Source of the DNA: a virus
Lineage: Duplodnaviria; Heunggongvirae; Uroviricota; Caudoviricetes
Length of the DNA stretch: 4,386 bases
IMG/VR virus record: IMGVR_UViG_2711768010_000004
Span: 1-4,386 of that record
Strand: one strand, 5' to 3'
Shown here: piece after piece, positions 1 to 4,386 of the stretch
Position numbering within the stretch: position 1 is the stretch's first letter
How the letters are laid out: every line of letters starts with the position of its first letter
The notes under the pieces: generated by a model
Database searches by the model: none
What the model saw: only the letters and a program-made list of their open reading frames with translations
What the model was told of the DNA's origin: nothing
Translations under genes and position numbers: made by a program

Positions 1-60
1 CTCTCGTCTGGGGAATATCTCCCCGGCAGCCTTCAGGGAAAAATATCATCAGATGGCTGC

Positions 61-414
61 TTAAAAAAAGAACAAATGGTAGTGTCCGCTATTGCCAGTA
101 CACCTCAATTGCTCTGCGGCTTCGCTCAGAGCTGGCGTATGTTCCCGGCCTACTGATTCACACAGGTAATCAACGAAACCGGACACCAGTTTTCGTTCGC
201 GAGGCGTGATCGCCCCACCGACCGGAGTCCAGTAATCGAAACCCAGTTGCAGGAGTTTGAAAAAACGCTTGTGGAATGCGTAGTTACACACACGCTTAAA
301 GTCTGCGTGTATCCACTCACCTATTTTGATTTGATGCAGAAAATCGCAACTCTCCGGCGTCGCCGGGAGAAGTAATCCGGAAGAGGTTTGTTTGACCAGT
401 TGTATATGTGCCAT
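61..414 (-). CDS. Hypothetical prophage protein, 117 aa (MAHIQLVKQTSSG...HYHLFFF)
   Basis: Track ORF 61..456 begins at a TTG (454-456) that overlaps the upstream stop. An in-frame ATG at 412-414 is preceded by GGAGA with a 6-nt spacer, so I place the start there. No family recognised. Confidence 0.45.
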   Translation of the reverse strand: MAHIQLVKQTSSGLLLPATPESCDFLHQIKIGEWIHADFKRVCNYAFHKRFFKLLQLGFDYWTPVGGAITPRERKLVSGFVDYLCESVGREHTPALSEAAEQLRCTGNSGHYHLFFF

Positions 415-2851: not shown

Positions 2852-3598
2852 CTACTTAACAACCCTCGAATGGCTAACATTCGGACGCCAGCTCTCCCAG
2901 TTAAAATTCACCCAGCGCCCGCCGTTCATGACCATGCGATCCATCACCCGCTCGCCGAGCAATGTTTTCATCACCTCATAGTTCAGGTTTGTCAGCATCC
3001 CCACGCTGCGCATCGACGCTGTCCGGCGATCAACAATCTGGTGCAGCACCACCTGCTCGTTTTTCGTCTCGCGCTGAATGCCAATTTCATCAAGAACCAG
3101 CAGATCCACTTCGCACAGCTCCCGCAAAAATTTTTCGCCTGACTGCCCGTCGTCATAGCTGGCGTGCAGGGCGCTCATAACATCAGCCACGGTAACCACA
3201 ATCACTGTCTGACCGTCTTTCAGCAGGCGATTCCCGATAGCTGCCGCTAAGTGATTCTTCCCGGTACCAGGTTTTCCGCTGAACGCAAAATTTGTACACC
3301 CGGTCATCAGTTCATCGGCGATGGATTTCGCCTGGCTTAACGCGTATCGCTGGCCGTCGTTCTGCACCTGGTAATTCGCAAACGAGCATTTACGGTGCAA
3401 CGGCTGGATGCCTGAGCGATTCAGAATTTTTTCCACCCGCAACTGGCGATTCAGGCGGTTGATCTCCTCGCTACGTTTCTGGCCTTCAGCAAGTTGCCAC
3501 TCGCGCCACTCCGCTACCGTTCTGAATGGGGCGGTTACATGTGGCGGGGTCAGTCGGCGGATGCGTTCCAGAACGCCGCCTGTCGCAATATTTTTCAT
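2852..3598 (-). CDS. DnaC-like AAA+ helicase loader / replication protein (YdaV-like), 248 aa
   Basis: Walker A (SGKPGTGKNHLA) and Walker B (LLVLDEIG) motifs are visible. I recall the sequence as very close to the Rac prophage YdaV replication protein. ATG at 3596-3598 lies 6 nt after the upstream gene's stop. Confidence 0.9.
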   Translation of the reverse strand: MKNIATGGVLERIRRLTPPHVTAPFRTVAEWREWQLAEGQKRSEEINRLNRQLRVEKILNRSGIQPLHRKCSFANYQVQNDGQRYALSQAKSIADELMTGCTNFAFSGKPGTGKNHLAAAIGNRLLKDGQTVIVVTVADVMSALHASYDDGQSGEKFLRELCEVDLLVLDEIGIQRETKNEQVVLHQIVDRRTASMRSVGMLTNLNYEVMKTLLGERVMDRMVMNGGRWVNFNWESWRPNVSHSRVVK

Positions 3599-3953
3599 GG
3601 TCCGTTACCCCCTGAAGCCTGGCGGGATCGCACTGTCCGGCAACGAGACGGTGTTAACCTGTCGGAGCAACGTCTCAGGCCGAACACCTTTCGGCGCGAA
3701 CAGGCCCTGGTATTCATTGGCGATGCTGTGTCGAATCACCTGCTCAGGTGTAAAACCCTGCTGACGGAATTTTTCCAGTTCCCGTATCGCCCCGTTAGCG
3801 CCCTGCTCCGTTCGAATCGGTTTTCGCAATGCCTGTCTGAACCGGACCCACTCATGCCAGAGTGTTTCCGGCAACCAATCGGGCAGCTCAATAGCCTCCG
3901 GCTCGAATTTTTTAGACGCTCGTTTTTGGCGAGGGGGAGATCAGTATTTAGAT

Positions 3954-3971
3954 CTTCCTCTTCCTCTTCCT
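3954..3971 (-). repeat. (CTTCCT)3 hexamer repeat encoding a six-glutamate acidic tract
   Basis: Three tandem CTTCCT units on the plus strand, read on the minus strand as GAG GAA x3 in the middle frame of the initiator gene. Confidence 0.8.
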
Positions 3972-3973
3972 CT

Positions 3974-4016
3974 GGTAACGCTTTTTGATCCGTTTGTGTA
4001 ACGCTGGCAGCGTTAC
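3974..4016. repeat. Iteron-like GTAACGCT 9-mers: one direct copy plus a 19-bp palindrome
   Basis: GGTAACGCT at 3974-3982. GTAACGCTG at 3998-4006 is mirrored by CAGCGTTAC at 4008-4016, giving the palindrome GTAACGCTG-G-CAGCGTTAC. Confidence 0.7.
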
Positions 4017-4281
4017 CTTTTCGTTTCAGTTCGCGTATTTTTGTTACTCGCTCGTTTGTAACCGCCCGTTTTTTTTAGAGCTTTTTCCGTTATGACGTTC
4101 AAAGTTAGGTAGAGAAAGCCCTCCGTCATTTTCGACCAGCCATCCAACCTGAATTAACGCATCAGCAAAACCAGACATAAAAGTGATGCGATCTATTGCA
4201 CTTTTTGTAACGCCGCGAGCGTTACAATCTGCATTACCGTCTATCATTTGTTGATCCGCCCATGCCCAGAAGCGAATAACC

Positions 4282-4386
4282 TGAGGTAGCCTGAGTTTAA
4301 CGGACACTCCTTCCTGAAATAGAATGGCATCAGAAGGAGCTAATAATGAGCAGAAAAACCCAACGTTACTCTAAAGAGTTCAAAGC
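4282..4386 (+). mobile_element. IS3-family insertion sequence, left end (IS600-like), partial
   Basis: A terminal TG at 4282 opens TGAGGTAGCCTGAGTTTAACGGACAC, an IS3-type inverted repeat. About 60 nt inside is an AGGAG RBS and an ORF opening MSRKTQRYSKEFK, which I recall as the IS600 OrfA N-terminus. The rest of the element is outside the window. Confidence 0.55.
4346..4386 (+). CDS. IS3-family transposase OrfA, N-terminal 13 codons only
   Basis: ATG at 4346 with AGGAG 7 nt upstream. The RYSKEFK motif is typical of the IS3-family OrfA HTH region. Truncated by the window edge. Confidence 0.5.
   Translation, partial: MSRKTQRYSKEFK

Follow-up and report, generated by a model that had tools for sequence, protein, structure and literature searches.

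We found in the window (the whole 4386-nt stretch of DNA that was analysed) a remnant of a phage replication-initiator gene, and consider it very likely that this region is a genuine, multiply hit pseudogene belonging to a Rac-like lambdoid cryptic prophage of Shigella sonnei. The remnant is interrupted by two indels and by an insertion sequence (Table 1), and a functional initiator cannot be made from it. A first-pass annotation, made from the letters alone, had described a gene passing through three successive minus-strand frames here, and re-reading the sequence gave the same: frame 1 (the frame of 4307) reads ...GKSSKKNGRLQTSE*, frame 2 (that of 4305) reads ...KKRAVTNERVTKIRELKRKGNAASVTQTDQKALPEEEEEEDLNTDLPLAKNE..., and frame 3 (that of 4306) reads ...PPRQKRASKKFEPEAIELPDWLPETLWHEW...GFRG*, the gene ending in the TAA stop at 3605-3607. 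Outside the two indels the remnant is 98.1% identical to the intact gene of Escherichia coli FDAARGOS_944 (L001, 3897-4685), with a net loss of 8 bp (687 in the window vs. 695 in the intact gene). By megablast, 681 complete E. coli genomes have a near full-length match, and these matches span 695 bases, not 687. The differences from intact orthologues disrupt the frame and, judged from their recurrence among assemblies, are fixed in the population.

Table 1. Features of the initiator remnant and of its surroundings, by window position
Feature	Position	Strand	Remarks
Second IS600, right end	1..107	+	same orientation as the IS600 at the initiator gene; cuts DUF1367 gene (108-414, minus strand) at codon 102
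ydaV	2852..3598	-	DnaC-like helicase-loader partner, intact, 248 aa; IstB_IS21 1e-19, Bac_DnaA
Replication-initiator remnant	3605..4281	-	nt 105-789 of a 789-bp, 262-aa gene; now in three frames
C-terminal domain coding remnant	3608..3886	-	residues 170-262; common to K-12 YdaU, homologue of DnaT C-domain
Surviving TCCCCCT	3932..3938	-	second frame break; junction of 10-bp deletion
(GAGGAA)n hexamer repeat	3953..3973	-	in-frame, poly-Glu; 3 units in window
Half-sites flanking the 3998-4016 dyad	3975-3981 and 4043-4062
Dyad GTAACGC-N5-GCGTTAC	3998..4016	.	gene nt 368-386; candidate initiator-binding site
A8 run	4069..4076	-	first frame break; A6 in intact orthologues, hence +2 insertion
Dyad GTAACGC-N5-GCGTTAC, second copy	4207..4225	.	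gene nt 161-179
GGT target-site duplication, one copy	4279..4281	-	gene nt 105-107
IS600 (IS3 family), left end	4282..4386	+	terminal TG, inverted repeat, orfA ATG at 4346

The two frame breaks were aligned to three intact 789-bp genes, those of FDAARGOS_944, COL60J and 'phage Rac' MN652886. The annotation had placed them at an A8 and a C5 run (the latter at 3933-3937), both of which are there, and had noted that one base added to each run closes the frame, which is arithmetically true. It had read them as one-base deficits in homopolymers, and this diagnosis does not stand: relative to the intact orthologues the lesions are an insertion of two bases (A6 to A8) and a deletion of ten. The one-base repair worked because +2 and -10 are frame-equivalent to a one-base deficit. 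The repaired ORF is accordingly right in frame but wrong in peptide, giving SSKKKRAV... and DLPPRQKR for the true SSKKRAV... and DLPLNPPRQKR; the true protein across both breaks reads ...GKSSKKRAVTNE...DLNTDLPLNPPRQKRASKK.... A frame that closes on one added base need not mark a one-base error, and it was the intact orthologues that changed the diagnosis here.

The ten bases missing from the window are TCCCCCTAAA, lost between two 7-bp TCCCCCT direct repeats; intact genes read TCTCCCCCTAAATCCCCCTCG at the site where the window reads TCTCCCCCTCG, and one of a conserved pair of C-tracts is thereby taken out. Such a loss between direct repeats suggests slippage during replication. The A-run is A9 in one S. 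sonnei lineage. The nearby (GAGGAA)n repeat numbers three units in the window and in S. sonnei FORC_011, six or seven in other S. sonnei, and 2, 3, 4 or 8 in E. coli; this polymorphism might be useful as a VNTR marker, or it may come from collapse of the repeat in short-read assemblies. Other frameshifts of the same gene were seen: E. coli 2013C-4974 (L005, 1397-2214) has lost one base of the first C5 tract (C5 to C4) and is labelled 'frameshifted' by PGAP, and L017 (9475-10270) has an inserted G 30 nt 3′ of the C-tracts. The C-tract stretch of the initiator gene seems to be a recurrent mutational target. Neither of the S. sonnei indels, nor the IS600::gene junction described below, was found in any complete E. 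coli genome of the collection.

Similarity to the intact gene ends at 4281/4282, where an IS600 end begins (TGAGGTAGCC...); the window itself ends within this element. The sequence past 4281 matches 'IS3-like element IS600 family transposase' annotations in thousands of E. coli records and is 100% identical to an annotated IS600 end. In S. sonnei FORC_011 and other complete genomes the element is 1264 bp long with ends TGAGG...CCTCA, and its ORFs orfA and orfB carry PF01527 and rve. Its assignment to IS600 follows from this identity, the TG...CA ends, the length of ~1.26 kb, the orfA/orfB pair and a 3-bp target duplication. The second GGT copy lies beyond the element, outside the window, adjoining the first 107 nt of the gene; in L018 the flanks read ...GGGAAGGT, IS600, GGTTATTCG.... 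These first 107 nt stand directly across the element in complete genomes, where they are called as a 41-aa ORF (344 contigs). The insertion is a simple transposition, and the annotation's claim that an IS interrupts the gene is borne out by the IS600 end and by the missing 5′ part on its far side. IS-driven pseudogenisation (by IS1, IS600, IS2 and others) is a general phenomenon of the Shigella literature. The S. sonnei initiator gene is a typical case, with the same 3-bp duplication, the same bounding of prophage fragments by IS elements and the same assembly breaks, and we see no difference from that pattern.

Could the lesions instead be artefacts, the frame breaks being homopolymer errors of a draft and the IS junction a misassembly, with the gene intact in the real genome? 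The annotation had offered sequencing error as an alternative, and some features of the record speak for it: the draft scaffold has a gap of 40 N, as the annotation had said (at 1169-1208, corresponding to 247 bp in the complete genome), both window ends lie in a repeat, and both breaks touch homopolymers. Yet what separates the window from intact genes is a gain of two bases (+2) and a loss of ten (-10), not single bases, and at the junction the IS is flanked by the canonical 3-bp duplication, the absent 5′ part of the gene lying across the element. The window is moreover 100% identical, over 3178 + 1167 nt, to the complete genome CP010829.1, that of S. sonnei FORC_011 of lineage IIIc (PMC5447701), and its sequence recurs in seven other records of more than 0.9 Mb. 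A chimeric 87-aa ORF (4044-4307) starts in IS600 and ends just past the A8 run, and is therefore diagnostic of both. Contigs with this ORF number 492, its copies bearing S. sonnei names such as FORC11_0721. In the assembly collection it is recorded in 481 blocks, for the most part on contigs of 2-5 kb, and also in 14 blocks with contigs above 1 Mb. Because exact copies were looked up, the counts are selected for A8, the share of S. sonnei with other run lengths falling outside them. All 12 of the 12 IS-bearing loci that were fetched have A8 together with the deletion. Since complete chromosomes and hundreds of contigs that stem from independent projects have the identical sequence, we exclude sequencing error and misassembly for practical purposes and give the artefact reading next to no probability. 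The lesions are thus fixed mutations and not draft errors, fixation being judged from the many independent assemblies.

The gene had been called a replication initiator in the annotation, and this is upheld both by profile and by position. Along its whole length the intact 262-aa orthologue matches PHROG 2509, 'replication initiation protein' (E 1.2e-89; residues 1-262, profile positions 1-277 of 277), and the gene order is repressor-cro-ydaT-initiator-dnaC-like ydaV. With PHROG 678, 'replication initiation O-like', the match is confined to residues 77-236 (7e-26). The N-terminal domain is 33-70% identical in annotated initiators of viable phages, among them TL-2011b, epsilon15, Xanthomonas CP2 and Olaya, phiPSA1 and Raharianne. 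For the C-terminal domain (residues 170-262) the matches are to the DnaT C-domain (PDB 2ru8_A, E 9.5e-5; 9zbt_D, E 3.2e-4); NCBIfam DnaT scored the intact whole protein at 16 bits, below its cut-off of 201. No Pfam family matched the intact 262-aa orthologue at E<=0.01, nor either of the fragment ORFs.

The label YdaU/DUF1376 that the annotation had attached fits one part of the protein only. In BLASTP against the K-12-type 285-aa YdaU, the C-terminal 124 aa are YdaU-like (101/124 identical, 81%) and the N-terminal 138 aa have no match. We dropped the DUF1376 (PF07120) label, since the intact orthologue has no PF07120 match and its N-terminal half is unlike K-12 YdaU; PF07120 is carried by the K-12-type 285-aa protein in L011. 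The intact protein is built of a phage-initiator N-domain, a Lys/Glu-rich linker and a DnaT/YdaU-like C-domain. By analogy to lambda O and P, it would bind an origin, and the loader YdaV would serve it to bring in the host helicase; this biochemical role is proposed from sequence similarity and gene order.

Several known systems share parts of this arrangement. In the K-12 Rac prophage, ydaU takes the same place, between ydaS/ydaT-like regulators and the DnaC-like ydaV, and iteron-like repeats are likewise present in its linker region together with an A-rich stretch and twin C-tracts, whereas its N-terminal 138 aa are unrelated and the S. sonnei allele belongs to PHROG 2509, not PHROG 6451. 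The initiator gene is a mosaic, as are lambdoid O genes. The Rac genes ydaUVW were still described as 'without determined functions' in 2023 (PMC11014345). The initiators of TL-2011b, epsilon15, Xanthomonas CP2 and Pseudomonas phiPSA1 share the N-domain at the identities given above, and the same in-gene layout of dyads and a polypurine repeat, but those genes are intact in viable phages whereas the S. sonnei copy is a chromosomal pseudogene; the RefSeq note for epsilon15 gives an HHpred match to 2ru8 (DnaT) for the C-terminus. The resemblance to lambda O/P lies in a two-domain initiator followed by a helicase loader, and in binding-site-like repeats and a purine-rich stretch in the linker region. 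In lambda the origin, ori-lambda, lies within the O gene. The S. sonnei gene is nevertheless not homologous in sequence to lambda O, Pfam gave no Phage_rep_O match, and the loader is DnaC-like, not P-like. Finally, the C-terminal 93 aa match the C-domain of E. coli DnaT and the gene order mirrors dnaT-dnaC, while the N-terminal half of the initiator is unrelated to DnaT.

Three allele states were found in S. sonnei. The first has A9 and the deletion without IS600 (example L016; 59 contigs named S. sonnei, counted by its own YdaV variant), the second has A8 and the deletion without IS600 (example L021; 159 contigs), and the third has A8, the deletion and IS600 (the window and FORC_011; the 492 contigs above). 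The 113-aa ORF of the second state is SS53G_2911 of S. sonnei 53G, of lineage II; the exact 222-aa ORF of L016 was absent from the protein collection. L016 and L021 are assigned to S. sonnei by the names of their proteins. In 53G-type S. sonnei the A8 run and the deletion are present without the IS, and therefore the frameshifts preceded the IS and the gene was already dead. The annotation had argued from the IS that the gene is inactive; by the same genomes the IS is not the primary hit. Parsimony over the three states, rather than a tree, makes it likely that the deletion came first, drift of the A-run second and the IS last. Under this scheme the 10-bp deletion, which is present in every S. 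sonnei copy examined, would have arisen by replication slippage between the TCCCCCT repeats; the A-run would then have drifted from A6 to A8 or A9; and in the FORC_011 lineage (IIIc) only, the 1264-bp IS600 would have entered codon 35/36 with a 3-bp GGT duplication, cutting the promoter and first 107 nt away from the rest of the gene. The three states together with the 3-, 6- or 7-unit hexamer repeat are possible simple lineage markers in S. sonnei.

In L016 (10277-11023), of the A9 lineage, YdaV has a Pro to Leu change in its Walker A motif (GKPGTGKN to GKLGTGKN) as well as a D to E change, which suggests that the loader gene is decaying too in that lineage. The ydaT-like gene upstream of the initiator in S. 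sonnei (L006 to L013, ~8273-8578) encodes 101 aa vs. 140 aa in E. coli, and may be truncated or frameshifted too.

The window consists of a 4.17-kb segment of prophage with a direct copy of IS600 at either end, and short-read assemblies end at its limits because the segment lies between two collapsed IS600 repeats. The second IS600 has no target duplication (flanks AAT/GTT), and in complete genomes an integrase fragment lies beyond it; this end is a rearrangement junction. The complete genomes place the prophage beside modCBA, with several further IS elements, the integrase fragment and inverted lysis genes, in agreement with the annotation's verdict of a defective prophage. Among the other genes of the segment are an intact hokD toxin gene (990-1145), queH (epoxyqueuosine reductase; 1167-1832) and a Rem-family gene (453-740), whose proteins, where readable, are identical or nearly so to those of the E. 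coli orthologues. The N gap corresponds to positions 12667-12913 of S. sonnei FORC_011 (L018); queH loses its last ~13 codons to it, and the rest of the gap is sequence upstream of hokD. As sok/mok are expected upstream of hokD, the hok/sok regulatory region probably lies within this gap; a search of the whole window with Rfam at gathering thresholds returned nothing. Some S. sonnei draft scaffolds, L011, L014 and L015 (CXFB01, CXFX01 and CXFC01), have the IS600::gene junction joined directly to a second Rac prophage of K-12 type (DUF1376 ydaU and ydaV) with duplicated blocks, and look like scaffolding artefacts across IS600 copies.

The pieces of the gene might still be used, through -1 ribosomal or transcriptional slippage on the A8 run or through expression as small proteins in their own right. 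Candidates for such proteins are the 87-aa N-terminal piece read out of IS600 and an 89-aa DnaT-like C-terminal ORF; one thing that fragments of this kind might do is titrate the origin of a related phage on its entry. In favour, A_AAA_AAA belongs to the classical slippery sequences, neither dyad site is damaged, ydaV downstream is intact too, and many annotations list the fragment ORFs as genes. Slippage on A8 cannot rescue the C-terminal domain, however, since the 10-bp deletion has no slippery context; in the window's lineage the IS has removed the promoter and first 35 codons; the TTG start of the 89-aa ORF was picked mechanically; and the A-run has drifted in length from lineage to lineage (A8, A9), as it would if unconstrained. 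We consider continued use of the pieces very unlikely and retain the reading as a pseudogene.

The middle of the gene has an architecture resembling a replication origin. The 7-mer GTAACGC occurs six times in the window vs. 0.45 expected, five of the six within the remnant, and perfect GTAACGC-N5-GCGTTAC dyads occur twice vs. none expected. The dyad at 3998-4016 has a half-site on either side, and on the 3′ side of the downstream one follow ACC(A/T)AGAG, a polypurine repeat, an AT-rich patch and usually twin C-tracts, the polypurine repeat being (GAGGAA)n in enterobacteria and a 5-nt (GAGAA)n elsewhere. The whole spans 3925-4062 and 4205-4227 of the window, and gene nt ~65-480 of L023, L024, L025, L028, L029, L031 and L032. 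The arms of these 7-N5-7 dyads are clade-specific: GTAACGC arms with other spacers occur twice each in the genes of TL-2011b, Klebsiella phi3.2, Olaya and CBW1004C, GTCCGC dyads twice each in those of epsilon15 and phiPSA1, and GTAGACG dyads twice in that of Raharianne; the K-12-type gene has TGTTCAAACA repeats of its own, an A-rich stretch and C7-TAAAT-C7. Two dyads with the same arms were found in 8 of 11 family genes vs. none of nine control genes, and were reproduced by codon shuffling in 0-4 of 500 trials per gene. A mere repeated peptide motif was rejected as an account of the dyads, the codon phases differing between copies in TL-2011b and the Klebsiella phage. These differing phases, and the 5-nt period of the polypurine repeat in five phages, argue for constraint at the DNA level. 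Our literature search found no description of the gene's lesions or of this architecture within it.

The small S. sonnei lesions all lie in or next to this architecture: one C-tract is deleted, the repeat number is variable, and the A-run alters the spacing of the dyads. We propose tentatively, and short of thinking it probable, that the middle of the gene is the prophage origin and that the origin's own repeats provide a mutational route by which the replication module of trapped prophages would be silenced. Going further, the clustering of lesions might reflect selection for silencing the initiator or origin of a prophage that cannot excise, avoiding lethal 'replicative killing' in situ, aided by the mutable repeats that form the in-gene origin. 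Replicative killing by trapped lambda prophages is established. All three lesions fall in the 0.68-kb remnant, and indels in the 4.17-kb segment are confined to the initiator; the five other complete genes have no indels and 0-1 amino acid changes relative to E. coli (ydaV, hokD and the Rem-family gene unchanged, DUF977 and a 118-aa gene one residue each). The frameshifts of the same gene in E. coli 2013C-4974 and L017 are independent, and the lesions sit in the conserved origin-like architecture. Selection could, however, have acted on the first hit only, later hits being neutral anyway; mutability alone (homopolymers, direct repeats, an IS hot spot) may explain the clustering; and three events are a tiny sample. 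We judge selection on the whole an unlikely explanation of the clustering, though one to be taken seriously, and the first hit may have been favoured through harm from in-situ replication of a trapped prophage.

As a pseudogene broken by an IS and indels, the S. sonnei initiator gene is ordinary, already sequenced and annotated, and it is a minor finding in itself: another decayed prophage gene in a species with known genome decay. The origin-like architecture is the sole point of the case worth pursuing. It recurs in initiator genes from enterobacterial phages to those of Xanthomonas, Ralstonia and Pseudomonas, and if it does mark origins, these could be annotated in many phage genomes.
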